Shown here one piece after another: positions 1,491 through 20,013 of a stretch of DNA of 29,168 nt (the stretch's first letter is position 1; the number at the start of each line of letters is the position of its first letter). The position numbers and the translations under genes were made by a program. The DNA is from a virus, in the IMG/VR virus record IMGVR_UViG_3300025012_000245; one strand, 5' to 3'. Below the pieces are notes generated by a model. It ran no database searches, was not told the origin of the DNA, and saw only the letters and a list, made by a program, of their open reading frames with translations.

Positions 1491-2713
1491 TTGGATACTA
1501 AATATAAATATCTTTATTTAGTAAAAGTTGAACCAGATGCAAATAATAATAAATTTTACAAACTAGTACAAACGGATGATAATAATTGGACTGCTGAATA
1601 TGGCCGCATTGGAGCAGGAGGTTTCAAACTGCATACTACAATATGAGTCACTGGGATAAAAAAGTAAGAGAAAAAGAGAAGAAAGGGTATTGTGATAATA
1701 CCAGATTAGTCGCAGAGGTTGTTGTTAAAGAAAAGAAGGACAAAGAATACTTAGACATTAAAAATCAAGTAATTGCATCTATCGTATCAAGACTTCAATC
1801 TATGGCGAGACAAGCCATTGCAGACAACTATACAATTTCTTCTAATAAAGTTACCCAAGTAATGATTGATGAAGCACAATTTACTTTAAATAATTTGATG
1901 AGTGCTGATACAATTGAATTATTCAATAAAGTTTTGATAGAATTGTTTAAAATTATCCCACGAAAAATGAAAAAGGTTAAAGATAATCTAGCAAAAAAAG
2001 TTGAGGATTTTGGAGAGATTATTCAGAAGGAACAGGATTTACTTGATGTAATGAGAGGTCAGGTGGTTACTGCATCTATAATTGAAAATGAAGAAATAGA
2101 GACAGATGAGCCTGTTAGAAATGAAACCATTCTTGATGTAATGGGTTTGCAATTTGAAGAAATTACAGACGAAGAGAAGAAAATGATTAAGAAAGAATTA
2201 GGAGAGATTAGTGATAGATTCTATCAAGCTTGGAAAGTTATTAATGTTAGAACTCAAGAAAAATTTGATAAATTTATTACTAATGAAAAAATCAAAGATA
2301 ATAGATTATTATTTCATGGATCTCGATCAGAAAACTTTTGGAGTATTATTAATTCAGGATTGGTGTTAAGACCAACTGGAGTGGTAATAAATGGAAAGAT
2401 GTTTGGGAATGGTTGCTATTTCTCGCCAACCGCCAGAAAGTCACTTGGATATACCTCGATAAGTGGGTCTCGATGGGTAAGTGGAAATGCAAATTCTGGG
2501 TTTATGGCATTATTTGATGTTGCTTATGGGAAAACTTATGATGTTCATTCATTTGATAGCAAATACTATAATTTTAATTATTAAGAATTACAAAAGGTTT
2601 GTAAAGGTGCGAATAGTCTTCACGCACATAAAGGCAAAATGTTGTACAACGACGAGATAATTGTTTATAAAGAAGATCAGATGACTATAAAATACTTAAT
2701 AGAACTTAAATAA
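1491..2713 (+). pseudogene. PARP-like ADP-ribosyltransferase (WGR + helical + ART domains), disrupted by a -1 frame break near 1641-1646 and an in-frame TAA at 2582-2584
   Basis: Frame 0 (1491-1646) encodes 'KFYKLVQTDDNNWTAEYGRIGAGGFKLHTTI*', a WGR motif. Frame 2 (1643-2584) continues the WGR end ('EKEKKGY') and helical domain, then 'LLFHGSRSENFWSIINSGLVLRP...GKMFGNGCYFSP' (PARP H-G-S and Y signature). After the TAA the same frame continues 'GANSLHAHKGKMLYNDEIIVYKEDQMTIKYLIELK*' (catalytic Glu 'YNDEIIVY') to the stop at 2711-2713. Confidence 0.8.
1643..2584 (+). CDS. PARP-like protein, largest intact reading frame (helical domain plus first two-thirds of ART domain; lacks catalytic Glu)
   Basis: ORF as it stands. 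ATG overlaps the upstream TGA (ATGA). Contains the H-G-S/Y-F PARP motifs but terminates before the conserved 'YNEYIVY'-type glutamate. Confidence 0.55.
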   Translation: MSHWDKKVREKEKKGYCDNTRLVAEVVVKEKKDKEYLDIKNQVIASIVSRLQSMARQAIADNYTISSNKVTQVMIDEAQFTLNNLMSADTIELFNKVLIELFKIIPRKMKKVKDNLAKKVEDFGEIIQKEQDLLDVMRGQVVTASIIENEEIETDEPVRNETILDVMGLQFEEITDEEKKMIKKELGEISDRFYQAWKVINVRTQEKFDKFITNEKIKDNRLLFHGSRSENFWSIINSGLVLRPTGVVINGKMFGNGCYFSPTARKSLGYTSISGSRWVSGNANSGFMALFDVAYGKTYDVHSFDSKYYNFNY

Positions 2714-2734
2714 AATATAAAGGGGATTATAAAT

Positions 2735-3034
2735 ATGAGTAATAAAAATGCTGAAATTAAAACAATTAAATATTATGGGACTAAACAATATTTTGTAGAA
2801 ACAGACGAAAGAACAGGAGAAGTTATTAAAGATAGTTCTTTTAGAATGAAACCAAAGAGTGAACGTGTTATTCATAATGATATGGCAACTATTGTTATCC
2901 TTGAAGATGGTTCAAAGGGTGTTTCAAAATGTATGCCAGAAGATGAATACAATAAGATAAAAGGAGTTAAGATTGCTTATCTAAGAGCAAAAATTAAATC
3001 TTTACATAAAGAACTTAAAACTTTAACTAAATAA
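2735..3034 (+). CDS. hypothetical protein
   Basis: ATG preceded by 'AAAGGGGA'. 99 aa, no recognisable motif. Confidence 0.6.
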   Translation: MSNKNAEIKTIKYYGTKQYFVETDERTGEVIKDSSFRMKPKSERVIHNDMATIVILEDGSKGVSKCMPEDEYNKIKGVKIAYLRAKIKSLHKELKTLTK

Positions 3035-3173
3035 TTTAACTAATAAAACAATTGAGCGAGGGACTGAAAAATCACTGATCCAGTCACAACAAAAGCCGAA
3101 TCCCAAACGGTGTGATTAATAATAAAACTGGGTAATGCTCAATTTAATTTCTTTAAAGAAAGGAAATAATTAA

Positions 3174-3419
3174 ATGAACTGTACATGTGGTTGCAAACTT
3201 CAATTCACAGATAATAGTCTTAAAACTGAAAATGGGAAGACAGGAGAGGTTAGAGCAGTATATTATTGTGACTCATGTAATATTGCATATGATGGTTACG
3301 AATTAGATTGTGAAGGTAAGTATGTTAAATTGCCAAAGAGATATCTAAAATGGTTTGATAGAAACTATATGAATGGAATTTTGAATAAATATTGTAGAAA
3401 CAAGAGGGTTAATTTATGA
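3174..3419 (+). CDS. small Cys-rich (zinc-ribbon-like) protein
   Basis: RBS 'AAAGGAAA', 'CTCGC...CDSC' Cys pairs. Stop overlaps the next start (ATGA). Confidence 0.6.
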   Translation: MNCTCGCKLQFTDNSLKTENGKTGEVRAVYYCDSCNIAYDGYELDCEGKYVKLPKRYLKWFDRNYMNGILNKYCRNKRVNL

Positions 3420-3886
3420 TATTCAAAGAAGAAAAATGCGACTTGTTTAATTTAGATAATAAATATGCTTTAGCACATTGCATCTCAAATGATTGTGCTA
3501 TGGGAACTACAAAAGACGGAAGAATATTACCATGTGTTGCAACAGAATTTATTAAAAGATTTCCAAAAATGAAAATAATTATTAAAATAAGAAAAGACCC
3601 TAATGGGATTGGTACTTGTTGTTTATATGCAGAGTGCAAAGATGACAAATGGATTAGAATTTTTAATCTTATTACTAAAGAAAAATATTGGCTTAAACCA
3701 ACCTATGATACATTAAAAAGTAGTTTATTAGATTTAAAGAAGCAATGTGAGCATTTAGATATTAAATTTATTGCAATACCTAAGATTGGATCTGGACTTG
3801 ATAGACTTTCTTGGAGTAAAGTTAGAGAAATTATTAAAGAAGTATTTAAAGACACTGATATTGAAATTTTAGTGTGTTATTTATAA
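3416..3886 (+). CDS. TARG1/OARD1-like (DarG-like) macrodomain ADP-ribosyl hydrolase
   Basis: 'CDLFNLDNKYALAHCISNDCAMG', 'LITKEKYWLKPTYDTLKSSL' and 'IAIPKIGSGLDRLSWSKVREIIKEVFKDTDIEILVCYL' closely parallel the TARG1 motifs 'GDLF..SLAHCISEDCRMG', 'KPTYENL' and 'PRIGCGLDRLQWENV..IEEVF..TDIKITVY'. Catalytic Lys (KPTY) and Asp (GLDRL) positions are conserved. Confidence 0.8.
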   Translation: MIFKEEKCDLFNLDNKYALAHCISNDCAMGTTKDGRILPCVATEFIKRFPKMKIIIKIRKDPNGIGTCCLYAECKDDKWIRIFNLITKEKYWLKPTYDTLKSSLLDLKKQCEHLDIKFIAIPKIGSGLDRLSWSKVREIIKEVFKDTDIEILVCYL

Positions 3887-4005
3887 TAAAAACTCTATAA
3901 TTGCGAAGTTCAATTTCTAAAACCCTTGCTACAGTAGTCTTTCAGAGGTTGGACTTTCCCTTAAAATAACTATTTTATATGCTCAATAAGGAAGGAAAAA
4001 TAAAT

Positions 4006-4158
4006 ATGAATAGACTATCATATATTCTACTTATTTTAATATTTTGCATTTTTGTTTCCATAGGATGTATAACTGGTGATATTACAATTGGTTGTTTACT
4101 TATGCTTGGAATGTTATTTTCAGTGATTATAGGTGTTTTAGAATGGGAGGTAAAATAA
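4006..4158 (+). CDS. small hydrophobic membrane peptide (50 aa)
   Basis: 'AGGAAGGAAAAATAAAT-ATG'. Sequence 'MNRLSYILLILIFCIFVSIGCITGDITIGCLLMLGMLFSVIIGVLEWEVK'. Absent from the ORF track only because it is under 60 aa. Confidence 0.45.
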   Translation: MNRLSYILLILIFCIFVSIGCITGDITIGCLLMLGMLFSVIIGVLEWEVK

Positions 4159-4331
4159 TGACAAAAACAGAAATCCTAATTTATGGAGCATTGCTTGAAA
4201 GCGATATGTATACTGATGGATATGGATCAACTGACGAGGATACGGAATTATTAAAAAAAGCATTAAAGAAAATATATGGAGTTGCAGAGGGAGTTTCGGA
4301 AGAGGATTTAAAAAAGCAGAAGAACAAATGA
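4158..4331 (+). CDS. hypothetical protein (57 aa)
   Basis: ATG at 4158 has RBS 'GGGAGG'. The upstream part of track ORF 4092 overlaps the membrane peptide and lacks an RBS. Confidence 0.5.
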   Translation: MTKTEILIYGALLESDMYTDGYGSTDEDTELLKKALKKIYGVAEGVSEEDLKKQKNK

Positions 4332-4405
4332 AAAATGATATGAGAAAATTGGTTATAGAATTTAGAGGTAAAATGGCAGAATATTTAGAAGAGGAGGAAT
4401 AATTA

Positions 4406-4642
4406 ATGAGCCAAGTAGATTATGAAAAATATTATAAGATTAGTAAACAATCTCTTAATCGTGCATGTGATTATCTAGAAGAAAGAATTGGATGCCCAAA
4501 ACAGAATAGAATATTTATGTGTGATATTTCAATTAATGAATGCAGAGAAAACGATGAAACATATGGAGAGGTATGTTGGATTAGATATTTTAGTAAATTA
4601 GCAAAAGAAGATATTGAATATGATGATAACCTGTTGAAATAA
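4406..4642 (+). CDS. hypothetical protein
   Basis: RBS 'GAGGAGGAAT'. 78 aa. Confidence 0.6.
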   Translation: MSQVDYEKYYKISKQSLNRACDYLEERIGCPKQNRIFMCDISINECRENDETYGEVCWIRYFSKLAKEDIEYDDNLLK

Positions 4643-4702
4643 ATATCCCTCGAATGGATTATTTCATCACAATCAAAATTAATAATAAAAGGAGAATATT
4701 AA

Positions 4703-5649
4703 ATGAAAGTAAAATTGTTTAGTCATCTCGATTTAGACGGAATTTCTTGTGGAATTGTAGGTAAATTAGCATTCCCAAATATTGATATTGAATATTGTGA
4801 TTATGATGATATAAATGGTAAAATCATTGATTACATATGTAGCGAGAAATATAGAGACTATGATACAACATTTATTACAGATATTTCAGTAAATACAGAT
4901 GTAGCAAAACTAATCGACAACGCACACACACTCAATCAAACGAATTTGTATTACTAGATCATCATAAAACAGCGTTGTGGTTAAATGATTATAAATGGGC
5001 ATTGGTAGCAGAATATCTAGATGAAGAAAATAATACTAAGCATTGTGGGACAGTAATGTTTTACGAAAATTTGATTAATTTTTATATTCCTAAACCACAT
5101 ACTAGAAATGTATTCTTAGATAATTTTTCTGCTTTAGATTTTGTAGAAATTGTTAGGCAATATGACACCTATGAATGGAAATCAAAATACAATAATGTTT
5201 TACCTAAACAAATAAATGATTTAATGTATATATTAGGGCGAGATACTTTTATTGAAACTGTTTTGGATAAATTAAGCATATTACGAGACTATGAATTAAC
5301 TGAACAAGACTTAAAATTATTAAAACGCAATCAGGAAACAATTGACCATTACATAGAATCAAAAAACAAATCAATTATTGTTAAGGAAATTCAAGGTTAT
5401 CAGGCAGGAGTAGTATTTGCGGAAAAATATGTTTCAGAATTGGGAAATAAGCTATCTGAATTACATCCCGAATTAGATTTTATTGCTATGATAAATCCAT
5501 CACATTCGGTCAGTTATAGGACTGTAAAGAAAGATGTAGATTTGAGTGTTATAGCGTCAATGTTCTGTGGAGGTGGTCATAGGCAAGCTTCAGGAAGTCC
5601 TATTGATGAAGATATGAAAAATAGGATTATTAATTTGGTGTTTAGTTAA
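4703..5649 (+). pseudogene. DHH-DHHA1 phosphoesterase (NrnA/oligoribonuclease-pAp phosphatase-like) with frame break between motifs II and III
   Basis: Frame of 4703: 'SHLDLDGISCGIV' (DHH motif I) and 'FITDIS' (motif II), ending in TAG at 4955. Frame of 4975 runs upstream as '...QSNEFVLLDHHKTALW' (motif III DHH) and ends with the DHHA1 'FCGGGHRQASGSP' motif. The break lies at or near the (CA)4 tract at 4923-4930. Confidence 0.75.
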
Positions 5650-5672
5650 TTTAAACTAAAATAAAAAGGAGA

Positions 5673-6155
5673 ATGAATTTAATGAGCAACAACAAACAAG
5701 AAATATCAATTGATCGTGTTAAGCAAATAACCCAAGAAGAACTACAAAGATATGTAAAAGGCAATTTTTCAGAAGATAATCTTAGGAAAATGATTCAAGG
5801 ACAATTAGATAAGTCTGGTAAAAATATAGTTTTTAAACAATTAGGTTTAAAATACGAATCATGGAATCATACATGGGAAGTTGATGGTTATGGAGAATTA
5901 TCTAATATGGTTAAAAATAGTTCGCATATTAGAGATATTGGAGAAAAAGTAATCCAAGAGATTATTAAACAAGTAACGCCAGAAGATATTCTTACTTCAT
6001 TGAACAAAAATAATATTCAATCATTAAAGAAAGTTTATAAAGAAACTTTAATGGGTTATTTTACACAAGAAGTTAGAAAACTAGCAATACTGCATGGCAC
6101 AGAACAAGCAGAAAAGTTGTTCAAGAAGTATTTATATGAAAGATTGGACGATTAA
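5673..6155 (+). CDS. hypothetical protein
   Basis: RBS 'AAAAGGAGAA'. 160 aa. Confidence 0.6.
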   Translation: MNLMSNNKQEISIDRVKQITQEELQRYVKGNFSEDNLRKMIQGQLDKSGKNIVFKQLGLKYESWNHTWEVDGYGELSNMVKNSSHIRDIGEKVIQEIIKQVTPEDILTSLNKNNIQSLKKVYKETLMGYFTQEVRKLAILHGTEQAEKLFKKYLYERLDD

Positions 6156-6181
6156 ATTAAGTTAGATAAGGAGTGTTAATT

Positions 6182-6352
6182 ATGTATATGGAATTTAAAG
6201 AAAAGACTACCGAAAAGAAATTTGGTGTATCATTGATTGACGAAGATGGATTTGTTTCTCAGTTATTTTACACAAGAGATGTTTGGGAAAATATAATTAA
6301 AACAATAGAGAAAGAAATTTCAGAATATGATATATCTAGAATATTTAATTAA
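6182..6352 (+). CDS. hypothetical small protein (56 aa)
   Basis: 'TAAGGAGTG' then ATG. Under the track length cutoff. Confidence 0.5.
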   Translation: MYMEFKEKTTEKKFGVSLIDEDGFVSQLFYTRDVWENIIKTIEKEISEYDISRIFN

Positions 6353-6358
6353 GGTTAG

Positions 6359-6390
6359 TTATCCTAGCAAATTATGGTTTTATAGGATAA
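6359..6390 (+). promoter_or_regulatory. 8-bp inverted repeat TTATCCTA-N16-TAGGATAA containing the TCCTAGCAAA motif
   Basis: Read directly. Lies between the stop at 6352 and the start at 6408. Confidence 0.3.
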
Positions 6391-6407
6391 AGAAAGGATT
6401 GAATATA

Positions 6408-6632
6408 ATGTTTAAAATTGATGGAATTGAATATACAGAAATGGATGCTTATTTATATAAAAAAGAGAATGATTTTATGAAAAGCAAAATTAGTAACTTA
6501 CAAAATGCTTTAGAATGCTTAAAAGATGAATATGTTCAATATGTAGACAATGCTTGCCATTGTAATGAGTATGATGACAATGAAGAATGTTCATATTGTT
6601 ATGCTAAAAGAGTATTAACAGAAAATAAATAA
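6408..6632 (+). CDS. hypothetical Cys/His-rich small protein
   Basis: ATG at 6408 with 'AAAGAAAGGA' RBS, in frame with track ORF 6327. 'CHCNEYDDNEECSYC'. Confidence 0.55.
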   Translation: MFKIDGIEYTEMDAYLYKKENDFMKSKISNLQNALECLKDEYVQYVDNACHCNEYDDNEECSYCYAKRVLTENK

Positions 6633-6650
6633 AAAGGAGTGTAATTTTAA

Positions 6651-6911
6651 ATGAAATATCAAGCAGGAGATAGAATTAAAGTCATAAAAATTATTGACTC
6701 GGAAAACAGTATCGATGGTATTGAACCAGATTATTTTATAAATAAAACAGGTACAATCACTGAAGTTAGAACAAACAGGGATTATCCATATATAGTTGAA
6801 TTTGACGATGAAAGAGCAGAAAATTCAGGAATGGGACTTTGGCATGAAGAAGAATTAGAATTGATTAATGGTAATGGAGAATGTTGCCCAACTTGCGGAA
6901 GAAAACTATGA
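6651..6911 (+). CDS. small SH3/KOW-like protein with C-terminal CxxC
   Basis: RBS 'AAAAGGAGTG'. N-terminus 'MKYQAGDRIKVIKII' is paralogous to the ORF at 14730. Confidence 0.6.
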   Translation: MKYQAGDRIKVIKIIDSENSIDGIEPDYFINKTGTITEVRTNRDYPYIVEFDDERAENSGMGLWHEEELELINGNGECCPTCGRKL

Positions 6912-7078
6912 AATGTTGCATTGTTGGTTGTGAAAATGAAGCAATTATAACGAACGAAGAAGAGAAATTCTTACAATGTTGCTCAGAACATATAAATGAT
7001 GTTAGAGATTATTTTGAAGAACGTCACAATAAAGAACAACAAGAAATGTACGATGATTGGGTTAGAAGTCAGATATAA
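6908..7078 (+). CDS. small Cys-rich protein
   Basis: ATG overlaps the upstream TGA (ATGA). 'MKCCIVGCENE...LQCCSEH'. Confidence 0.5.
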   Translation: MKCCIVGCENEAIITNEEEKFLQCCSEHINDVRDYFEERHNKEQQEMYDDWVRSQI

Positions 7079-7093
7079 AAAGGAGGATTATAA

Positions 7094-7480
7094 ATGAATC
7101 TTGAAGATATGGATTTATCAGTAAGGTCTTACAACTGCCTCAAAAGAGCAGGAATAGATACTCTTGAAGATATAATTCAAAAAACAGAAGATGACATGAT
7201 TAAAATTCGCAATCTTGGCAGAAAGAATTTTGAAGAAGTAAGATGGAAGTTGAAAGAGTTTGGACTGACATTTAAATATGAAATCTCTTACAAATTAACA
7301 GGAAGAGAAAAGTTTAACTTAGTATTTGCAAAAATGACAAATGAAAATTTAGCTGATTTAATTCTTGGAGGAAGTTGCCCTAGCCAATTTAATCTTTTTG
7401 ATAAAAAAGAAAATGGATGTCCAGTTTTCTTTTGCACAAGTTGTTGGGAGAAAGCATTAGAAATGGAATACGAACAATGA
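7094..7480 (+). CDS. RNA polymerase alpha-subunit C-terminal-domain (alpha-CTD)-like protein
   Basis: '[43 protein letters not shown]' matches the RpoA alpha-CTD helix-hairpin-helix ('LSVRS.NCLK...I..L......ELL...N.G.KSL.EI'). The C-terminal part is Cys-rich. Confidence 0.65.
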
Positions 7481-7617
7481 AAAAGATGACAGAAGAACAA
7501 AAACTATATTTTCTCTATGGTGCTATGTACCAAATGGCAAAAGAAGCAAAAGATGATGGATTATTTGAAGACTTAAACATATCACAAATAATTGGTTTAT
7601 TTATTAAGGGGTTATAA
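7477..7617 (+). CDS. hypothetical small protein (46 aa)
   Basis: ATG overlaps the stop of the previous gene (ATGA). In frame with track ORF 7417. Confidence 0.4.
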
Positions 7618-17346: not shown

Positions 17347-17583
17347 ATGATACTAAAATCATTTGAAGAAATGCGCGATGATGAAACAATTTGTGATTAT
17401 TGTCATCAAACAGATTATGGAGAACATAAATCTTGTGTTACACCTTCTGGATACTCATCTTGTGAAGGAATGTGGTGTGAAGAAGCTTACGAGGCATATT
17501 TAGATGATAATAATGCATCTAAAATATTAATAAAATATCAAAATAATGTAAAATTATTAAATAAGGAGGAATTAATAAAATGA
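17347..17583 (+). CDS. Cys/His-rich small protein
   Basis: RBS 'AAGGGGAAGGAGAAAATT'. Confidence 0.55.
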   Translation: MILKSFEEMRDDETICDYCHQTDYGEHKSCVTPSGYSSCEGMWCEEAYEAYLDDNNASKILIKYQNNVKLLNKEELIK

Positions 17584-18188
17584 GTACAGCACTTAAATTT
17601 GAATTTGATTTTGAAGAAGTTTTTGAGGGAATTAAGTTAGGGGTAATTAAAGAAATGTCAGAAATGACTTTTGATGATATTACCACCAGTGCGATTAATC
17701 AGATTAAAAATGAAATGAAAAATAAAATATCTCTTACATATAAAGACGAATATGAAATCAGAGACGAAATTAAAGATGAAATCAAAGAAAAAGTATATCA
17801 AAAATTAATTGCAGAAATTAAAGATGAATATAAAAAGAAGTATGAAGAAGCATTTAGTAAAGATGTGACAAATGCACTTAACCTTGCCGAAGAAGATGTT
17901 ATAGAAGAGATAAAATCTGAAACGATTGATAGGTTATATAGTAATTTGTATTCAAATATTCAAAGTCAAGTAAAATCTAAGATTAATAATTCTATATCTG
18001 AAATTATTAATGCAATCACAGGGAATAGTATTAAAGTTGAAAATACTAAAAATACGATTTCTAAAGAAGAATATAGTGAACTTCTGCACAGAGATGAAAC
18101 ATTAACTGCATTGGAAAACGGTGGAGTAGATAACTGGGAATGGTATGGAGAATCTTTAAGTAATTATTTTAAAAACAAAAATAAATAA
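17580..18188 (+). CDS. charged coiled-coil protein
   Basis: ATGA overlap. K/E-rich heptad-like sequence. C-terminal 'LENGGVDNWEWYGESL'. Confidence 0.6.
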   Translation: MSTALKFEFDFEEVFEGIKLGVIKEMSEMTFDDITTSAINQIKNEMKNKISLTYKDEYEIRDEIKDEIKEKVYQKLIAEIKDEYKKKYEEAFSKDVTNALNLAEEDVIEEIKSETIDRLYSNLYSNIQSQVKSKINNSISEIINAITGNSIKVENTKNTISKEEYSELLHRDETLTALENGGVDNWEWYGESLSNYFKNKNK

Positions 18189-18977: not shown

Positions 18978-19112
18978 ATGTTTGTAATATTTATTCTTGC
19001 TATAGTAGTATTACTATTATTCTTAGCAATACCACTATACTCAAAAATAGGCCAGAAAATTGAACAAGTAGAAAATATAATTAAAGAGGAGATTAAAAAT
19101 AATGAGAAATAA
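18978..19112 (+). CDS. small single-TM membrane peptide (44 aa)
   Basis: 'AAAGGTGGTGATGATATAT-ATG'. Overlaps the start of the SPFH gene. Confidence 0.4.
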   Translation: MFVIFILAIVVLLLFLAIPLYSKIGQKIEQVENIIKEEIKNNEK

Positions 19113-20013
19113 TTTTGAAATCGGAGATATTTTAACAATGAATAAATTCACTAAAGGTTTAATTGCAGTTGGAGTATCAGCAGTTGTCTTACTTGCAGGT
19201 TTTGGAATGTCAACTACAAAGATTAATCCAGGACATGCAGGAATTGTATATAATGTATCTGGTGGTCTAGAAGATATTACATTGAGTCAAGGATGGCACA
19301 TAGTAGCACCTTGGAAAAGTATTAGAGAATATCCTATTAGTACAGAAACAGTATGGTTAACACAGGCTAAAACAGAGGGTTCACCCAATGATGATTCCTA
19401 TAATACTTCTACTATGGAAGGAAAACCTGTAAACGTAGACGCTTATTTTACATATCATGTGAATGTAGAAAAATTACCTGCAATATTTAATAGATTTAAA
19501 GGCGCAGATATCGAATCTATCCAATCAGGATATTTAAAGCAACAGGTGAAAACAGCTTCTCAATCAGTTACATCTAGTTATAGTGTTCTTGATTTGTACG
19601 GCAATAAGCGTTCAGAGATTCAAAATAAAATCCATGATATATTAATCAAAGAATTAACTCCATTTGGATTAGAAGTCGAAACATTTAGTTTTGGAGAAAT
19701 TCGTCCTGATGCAGATACTATGAAAGCAATTCAGGCAAAAGTTGATGCACAGCAAAAACTTCAACAAATGCAAACAGAATTAGAGCAATCAAAAGTTACA
19801 GCAGATAAAGCGAGAGTTGATGCGAAAGGGATAGCGGATGCAGCAGTAATTAGAGCAACAGGCGAAGCAGAAGCAAATCAAAAATTACAAGCATCGTTAA
19901 CTCCTGAATTGATTCAAAAATTATGGATTGATAAGTGGGATGGTCAACAATCTCAAGTTGTTGGTAGTGGAAGTCAAATGATTAATATTCCGGCTATTGG
20001 TGGGTCTAAGTAA
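19102..20013 (+). CDS. SPFH/band-7 (stomatin/prohibitin/HflK-C-like) membrane protein
   Basis: Strong RBS 'AGAGGAG'. N-terminal TM 'LIAVGVSAVVLLAGFG', then 'PGHAGIVYNVSGG...GWHIVAPW', typical of an SPFH domain, then a coiled-coil tail. Confidence 0.75.
   Translation: MRNNFEIGDILTMNKFTKGLIAVGVSAVVLLAGFGMSTTKINPGHAGIVYNVSGGLEDITLSQGWHIVAPWKSIREYPISTETVWLTQAKTEGSPNDDSYNTSTMEGKPVNVDAYFTYHVNVEKLPAIFNRFKGADIESIQSGYLKQQVKTASQSVTSSYSVLDLYGNKRSEIQNKIHDILIKELTPFGLEVETFSFGEIRPDADTMKAIQAKVDAQQKLQQMQTELEQSKVTADKARVDAKGIADAAVIRATGEAEANQKLQASLTPELIQKLWIDKWDGQQSQVVGSGSQMINIPAIGGSK

Follow-up and report, generated by a model that had tools for sequence, protein, structure and literature searches.

A putative NrnB-like DHH/DHHA1 phosphoesterase gene of a Rifle aquifer phage, probably inactivated recently by a frameshift at a CA repeat

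NrnA, Rv2837c (CnpB), GdpP, and PggH are DHH-DHHA1 proteins that act as nanoRNases, pAp phosphatases, and phosphodiesterases of cyclic or linear dinucleotides. What is known of NrnB is limited to nanoRNase function: it complements orn and cleaves pGpG (PMC9779919). Phages also possess a group of NrnB-like DHH phosphoesterases (PHROG 26954 / 4771), exemplified by the "nrnB oligoribonuclease" of Clostridioides phage AR1086-1 and by the DHH phosphoesterases of Bacillus phages AR9, PBS1, and SP-15. In the literature searched, no biochemical characterization of any member of this phage family was found.

The gene considered here lies in a viral DNA stretch of 29,168 nucleotides (IMG/VR record IMGVR_UViG_3300025012_000245), referred to as the window throughout. 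Its parts are arranged as follows:

4689..4695, + strand: Shine-Dalgarno-like AAGGAGA, read from the sequence, 7 nt ahead of the DHH start codon ATG
4703..4957, + strand: ORF1, the N-terminal DHH-domain fragment of 84 aa (motif I DLDG, motif II FITDIS), true coding to about 4930 and then the tail LNQTNLYY; the exact product, P0121, is found on 19 contigs
4923..4930, + strand: (CA)4 tract with a 2-nt insertion, CATACA in the sister allele
4931..5649, + strand: remaining part of the gene, read in the -1 frame (which is open from 4864), with motif III LLDHH, motif IV YDT, linker helices, and DHHA1 with SYR and GGGH

Translation of the three forward frames of 4500-5900 gives ORF1 in frame 0, from ATG 4703 to the stop at 4957 (+ strand, 84 aa), which reads MKVKLFSHLDLDG...FITDIS...LIDNAHT and then, out of frame, LNQTNLYY and the stop; both DHH motif I (HLDLDG) and motif II (FITDIS) are within it. 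The -1 (equivalently, +2) frame is open over 4864-5649, reads ...HTQSNEFVLLDHHK...CGGGHRQASGS..., and carries LLDHH (motif III), YDT (motif IV), and the GGGH of DHHA1, so that the distribution of motifs between two frames described in the first-pass annotation agrees with the translations. The two open frames overlap at 4864-4957, a segment containing CACACACA at 4923-4930. The same annotation had put the break at this tract, and the comparison of the sister allele GCATACACTC with GCACACACACTC indeed places the indel there. The first stop after the 2-nt insertion falls at 4955-4957, and the gene is therefore not intact or translatable as a whole. As had also been proposed, deletion of one CA gives a continuous protein, 314 aa long and colinear with many intact orthologs of 300-320 aa; its junction aligns without gaps against intact orthologs (LIDNVYTTSNEFVLLDHHK in P0001), and in the alignment of 21 sequences the repaired junction (LIDNAHTQSNEFVLLDHHK) is as long as those of P0001 and P0007. 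Although CACACACA is the sole tract of (CA)4 or longer in the 29-kb window, it is statistically unremarkable, 0.34 such tracts being expected per window by chance and at least one occurring in 29 of 100 dinucleotide-preserving shuffles. The next gene (ATG 5673) is preceded by the same AAAGGAGA motif as the DHH gene. A second DHH copy that might compensate for the broken one was not found in the window, and a promoter and terminator scan around the DHH gene gave only background levels.

The repaired protein matches PHROG 26954 and 4771 ("DHH phosphoesterase") with E=5e-27 and 5e-24, respectively. Its Pfam scores are below the gathering thresholds (DHH, 19.3 bits against a cutoff of 28.1; DHHA1, 20.2 bits against 25.9, the alignment covering residues 267-312), and many of its orthologs have a precomputed PF01368 or PF02272 match. 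The catalytic residues D10-L-D12, D60 (FITD), D85-H86-H87, and D154 (YDT) are invariant or at least 90% conserved in 21 aligned sequences, and G289-G290-G291-H292 (GGGH) is invariant in this alignment. Among 5.8 billion clustered proteins, 706 matches were obtained, most of them full-length (300-320 aa) and up to 73% identical, several being labeled by JGI as [quoted passage not shown]. A tblastn search of phage genomes gave 22 records at no more than 46% identity, mainly from large Bacillus, Clostridioides, and Lysinibacillus phages, with the annotations nrnB, DHH phosphoesterase, or phosphohydrolase, and a set of 50,697 phage records gave no megablast match to 4400-5900. With the NCBIfam NrnA equivalog model NF053633, the DHHA1 end alone aligns, and the score is 15.8 bits against a cutoff of 350. 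Among solved structures, the best sequence-profile match is 6mtz, a DHH protein of Helicobacter pylori (E=4e-16), which is also the best Foldseek match (E=5e-16) of an AlphaFold2 (AF2) model of the repaired protein with a pLDDT of 83.6; the top 42 Foldseek matches in the PDB are all of the DHH family, with 6mtz followed by an archaeal PAP phosphatase, NrnA homologs, RecJ cores, PggH, and GdpP.

By these PHROG, annotation, alignment, NrnA-model, and fold results, the repaired protein is predicted to be a stand-alone DHH/DHHA1 phosphoesterase of the NrnB/COG2404-like branch and not NrnA, and its putative enzymatic activity follows by analogy from this family assignment. The earlier identification as a DHH/DHHA1 phosphoesterase thus holds, resting on the PHROG match at E=5e-27 and on a fold shared with 6mtz, NrnA, PAP phosphatase, and RecJ, with the Pfam matches weak and sub-threshold. 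The label "NrnA-like" proved imprecise, since the NrnA equivalog model stays at 15.8 of 350 bits and both the source annotations and the closest phage matches say NrnB/COG2404. Intact orthologs, the alignment of which had been suggested at the same time, are plentiful (100+, up to 73% identity), and to them the sister protein P0123 should be added.

All close relatives of the gene come from groundwater metagenomes of the Rifle aquifer (PRJNA268031, SRR16584xx, ANAN16-1 scaffolds, JGI 33000xxxxx), where two haplotypes are distinguished: w, the window type, and i, a co-occurring intact sister. An exact-sequence look-up in ENA, JGI, and Logan assemblies of several samples returned 19 contigs with the 84-aa ORF1 product (w); the downstream ORF is called as 224 or 197 aa in these assemblies. 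The intact 314-aa P0123 (i) was found on 7 contigs; it belongs to the same 90% cluster and is 93% identical to the repaired w protein. The broken allele is the commoner one in the sampled population. At the DNA level, the w tract GCACACACACTC is present in 11 of the 11 w loci inspected and the i tract GCATACACTC in 7 loci. The w contigs, mosaics aside, are 99.6-100% identical to the window and all read AACGCACACACACTCAA; i reads AACGCATACACTCAA, translated as N-A-Y-T-Q, with no frame break. Compared with i, the tract of w has two extra bases (CA) and a T>C change (Y75H), the latter making the repeat uninterrupted.

Across the gene, the divergence of w and i amounts to 7.5% (71 fixed differences in about 945 positions) and is distributed unevenly, staying below 2% over the initial 330 nt and reaching 18% over the final 300 nt. 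The w contigs have no SNPs within the gene, and the frameshift always accompanies the w-type SNPs at 4858-4927. When contigs were compared with window positions 3874-7004, five of them (L016, L018, L001, L012, and L017) appeared as w/i mosaics from various samples and with different breakpoints, and in some the frameshift is joined to an i-type 3' half. These mosaics represent either frequent recombination between co-occurring phage strains or strain-chimeric assemblies.

No signature of relaxed selection is detectable in the w gene by dN/dS or by the polarity of its amino-acid changes. Comparison of w with i gives a dN/dS ratio of 0.14 over the full gene and the same value past the shift, and of the 20 amino-acid differences polarized against 19 outgroup sequences about 12 are derived in w and 8 in i, mostly conservative ones, with the exception of G288C beside the GGGH motif. 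Therefore, nearly all of the w/i divergence has accrued under purifying selection. The 239 downstream codons are free of stops despite a GC content of 29%, and this, together with the low dN/dS and the absence of w SNPs in the gene, indicates that the frameshift is recent relative to the w/i split. An intact downstream ORF is also what continued expression would predict, and since the w gene is SNP-free, it bears no direct sign of decay.

The plausible genes in the window are all on the + strand, and most of them are small. The following are mentioned below or deserve a note:

off the window start, + strand: ATP-dependent DNA ligase, upstream of the DHH gene
1035-1490, + strand: Macro/DarG-like protein (PADLOC DarG model, E=1e-22)
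1491..2584, + strand: WGR-PARP, a second frameshifted accessory gene of w, split into 51 aa and 313 aa by a 1-nt loss (T3 at 1622-1624)
3416-3886, + strand: second Macro/DarG-like protein (PADLOC DarG model, E=2e-15)
7094-7480, + strand: small protein with an RNA polymerase alpha C-terminal-domain match (precomputed Pfam on the identical L009 gene)
17580-18188, + strand: 202-aa protein whose C-terminus resembles "host RecBCD nuclease inhibitor" PHROGs
19102-20013, + strand: SPFH protein, further downstream of the DHH gene
23101-25581, + strand: Major-vault-protein-like protein of 826 aa with shoulder and vault-repeat domains (MVP_shoulder, E=2e-27)
27291-28292, + strand: Sak4-like (AAA_24) annealing protein

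At the T run of WGR-PARP, the window has GGAGGTTTCAAAC (T3) and the related contigs L026 and L027 have GGGGGTTTTCAAAC. In relatives, T4 or TTA stands at this place and a single protein is encoded, 407 aa long in L026/L027 and 406 aa in the i strain (L002). The 51-aa fragment is found on at least 16 contigs, and the split is considered real because its fragment products recur in this way. The Macro pair flanks PARP, forming a writer/eraser module of ADP-ribosylation in a phage, DarG being an ADP-ribose-removing antitoxin; the second Macro gene is missing from the i strain. The P0001 phage has its DHH gene directly behind the ligase, which makes the Macro-PARP block look like an accessory insertion in the window. 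In the related phage contig L026 (features 1503-2093 and 6585-7541), a protein of the proteasome-subunit family (PF00227) is encoded, and a GIY-YIG homing-endonuclease-like gene is inserted between the ligase and Macro genes.

A vault-like protein is unusual in phages, and in the phage database its only matches, at about 42% identity, are in uncultured huge phages of 462-735 kb (LR756500, LR756501, and LR756503). Because of these matches, and because orthologs of the DHH gene were found on contigs of up to 277 kb, the element is most likely a large or huge phage.

The DHH gene is also broken elsewhere. An unrelated ortholog lineage (P0036; L028/L029; 6 contigs) has a +1 T frameshift of its own within motif I (ACG GAT CTT T GAT GGA):

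L028 1392-1500 and L029 63-171: extra T in motif I (ACGGATCTTTGATGG), an independent frameshift

The DHH gene of L028 directly follows an HNH endonuclease gene; L029 starts too near the DHH gene to show one. A further candidate, P0042 (199 aa), was taken for a truncated ortholog and rejected as such, since an in-frame TGA at a conserved Trp interrupts it, a sign of a recoded genome and not of a frameshift. In L023 / L024 (about 2659-3600), the TGA stands exactly at this Trp (between HHKTAL and LNKYRW), and gene callers split the DHH ortholog into 91 aa and 199 aa. The position of the TGA suggests that this relative, with contigs of up to 237 kb, reads it as a sense codon.

Taken as a whole, the locus is most probably a recently inactivated accessory gene of the phage, that is, a young pseudogene of a dispensable NrnB-like enzyme, and the "simple decay" offered as one of two possibilities in the first-pass annotation fits the data (a 2-nt gain at the CA tract, intact orthologs, and an intact sister allele). 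The ancestral gene would have encoded a stand-alone DHH/DHHA1 phosphoesterase of roughly 314 aa, NrnB/COG2404-like, which, by analogy with the family, may have hydrolyzed very short RNA/DNA oligonucleotides, pAp, or linear dinucleotides in a Mn2+-dependent manner and may have helped to salvage nucleotides during infection. A large Rifle phage would, in one haplotype, have acquired CAC in place of TAC at codon 75 as well as an additional CA unit, giving GCA-CACACACA-CTC; the likely source of the gain is slippage at, or duplication of, a short repeat, and the substitution probably came first. Translation from the strong Shine-Dalgarno sequence and ATG 4703 would now end at 4957 after 84 residues, and a product devoid of motifs III and IV and of the entire substrate-binding DHHA1 domain would not be an active enzyme. 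The 239 downstream codons would have stayed intact only because the event is so recent. The broken allele appears to reside in a mosaic, recombining accessory region that adjoins the second frameshifted gene, WGR-PARP. Because the broken allele is the commoner one, the accessory region is mosaic, and a second frameshift is nearby, these observations argue that both DHH and WGR-PARP are dispensable in the current host or environment.

The other possibility raised in the first-pass annotation was a reversible switch, in which (CA)n would keep the frame at n=3 or 6, break it at n=4 or 5, and toggle between these lengths, as at a phase-variable contingency locus. Some features of the locus do speak for it: the indel is within a dinucleotide repeat, n=3 restores the frame exactly, the T>C change has lengthened the repeat from an interrupted CATACA, and the broken allele remains frequent, its downstream ORF being undamaged. 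Nevertheless, n=4 on all 19 w contigs, and the intact allele belongs to a 7.5%-diverged haplotype without a (CA)3 tract. A collection of 15 billion proteins lacked every product predicted for a w gene with (CA)1, 2, 3, 5, 6, or 7 and for a mosaic gene with n=3 or n=6. Scans with degenerate DNA patterns that allowed any tract length between the conserved flanks gave no matches in IMG/VR and one in JGI metagenome contigs, the latter being an already-known i-type contig. Thus, at the level of assembled consensus there is no ON/OFF polymorphism, the tract evidence being that of consensus assemblies, which (CA)3 revertants below consensus would escape. PhasomeIt sets the threshold for dinucleotide phase variation at six or more units, and the four units of the tract are below this number (PMC6321876). 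Finally, the tract is of a kind expected by chance, and orthologs have no repeat at this position. On these grounds (an invariant (CA)4 in every assembled w copy, no products of other lengths, an intact CATACA allele on another haplotype, and fewer than six units), the proposal of an on/off switch was not borne out, and such a switch is improbable.

A distinctly improbable alternative to plain decay is that the loss was selected and not neutral. According to this scheme, the dominant aquifer haplotype lost both WGR-PARP and DHH/DHHA1, two enzymes whose substrates are nucleotide-derived, through short-repeat indels, and recombination moves the broken DHH segment onto sister backgrounds; a possible cause would be a host defense that senses these activities or is triggered by them, with rare sub-consensus (CA)3 revertants as a slow way back. 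The mosaics, if they are real recombinants, would mean that the broken allele is spreading and could be favored, not just tolerated. The sensing could be likened, by analogy, to guard-type systems that detect phage enzymes depleting second messengers.

Translational recoding would preserve the function of the gene as it stands, if peptidyl-tRNA-His re-paired from CAC to the CAC two bases downstream (+2 on CAC-ACA-CAC), or if a -1 shift took place, so that a fraction of the product were full-length. Re-pairing after a +2 shift would be perfect and would give exactly ...NAHTQSNEF..., the two frameshifts of w (DHH and WGR-PARP) need the same net -1/+2 correction, and the downstream ORF is intact. 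Against this, 4864-4957 has no in-frame X XXY YYZ heptamer, the downstream structure is not stimulatory (z=+1.0), no Shine-Dalgarno-like stimulator precedes the CA tract, and +2 ribosomal shifts are rare. Moreover, the sister allele and all orthologs are single-frame, and the shift is therefore not a conserved programmed feature. Recoding at this site is very unlikely. Canonical -1 PRF was considered separately and rejected, since the only X XXY YYZ heptamer is at 4774, upstream of the overlap, and the fold of the 80 nt downstream is no better than that of shuffles (z=+1.0).

It is still harder to believe that the frameshift is an artefact of sequencing or assembly and that the true genome carries an intact gene. 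Short-repeat indels are a common class of error and the data are metagenomic, but the identical tract was obtained from different samples and by independent pipelines (IDBA scaffolds, MEGAHIT k127 and k141, JGI, and Logan), and the i haplotype, sequenced in the same study on the same platform, was assembled in intact form. The frameshift is considered real because of this reproducibility across samples and four assembly pipelines.

Least credible of all is a functional split enzyme assembled from two pieces, the N-terminal 84 aa and 197-224 C-terminal residues translated from a start of their own, for, although both pieces are still ORFs and are annotated by gene callers, the internal starts TTG 4975 and ATG 5056 have no Shine-Dalgarno sequence before them in a region where genes have strong AAGGAGA sites, both lie downstream of motif III (4957-4965), which would thus be present in neither product, and no ortholog is naturally split here. 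Independent C-terminal initiation as such was rejected on the same two points, the lack of a Shine-Dalgarno sequence at either start and the loss of motif III.

If the locus is read as a young pseudogene, it has little weight alone, being one more phage NrnB-like DHH phosphoesterase, caught in all probability shortly after a loss-of-function frameshift. Its value at the population level is modest and consists in the coexistence of intact and broken alleles within one aquifer time series. The commoner broken haplotype, the second frameshifted gene, and the independent break in an unrelated lineage together indicate that the enzyme is dispensable for these large phages, and such dispensability argues against an essential counter-defense role. 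The first-pass annotation had supposed that a phage copy could degrade the cyclic-nucleotide signals of host defense. This anti-defense reading, which would place the enzyme by function beside Acb1, Apyc1, and viral ring nucleases, is unsupported: the literature searched for a role of phage DHH-DHHA1 proteins in anti-defense or cyclic-nucleotide degradation contained nothing relevant, and PADLOC gave no match for either the DHH protein or PARP. For annotation, the fragments of 84 aa and 197 or 224 aa should be treated as one probable pseudogene, not as two hypothetical proteins.

With the phage NrnB-like DHH phosphoesterases, the repaired protein shares a stand-alone DHH and DHHA1 architecture of about 300-320 aa with all catalytic motifs, as well as a placement in the early, nucleic-acid-metabolism region of large phages. 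The Clostridioides phage protein is 46% identical to it over the full length. Unlike these relatives, the window copy is frameshifted after motif II. Bacillus subtilis NrnB (YngD) / COG2404 is a putative relative of the protein, whose homologs bear the NrnB name in JGI and phage records. The DHH protein of H. pylori G27 (6mtz) is the best match in both sequence and structure, yet it is only about 23% identical and is itself uncharacterized. NrnA, Rv2837c (CnpB), GdpP, and PggH have the two-domain fold and the DHH and GGGH motifs in common with the repaired protein but differ from it by an identity of only 10-18% and by a score far below the cutoff of the NrnA equivalog; it falls outside these subfamilies. 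As to the break itself, it resembles the SSR phase-variable genes of Haemophilus, Neisseria, and Campylobacter in being a frameshifting indel within a short tandem repeat inside a coding region, whereas the tract of the window has four units, shows no length polymorphism between samples, and is a repeat that is not conserved in orthologs.
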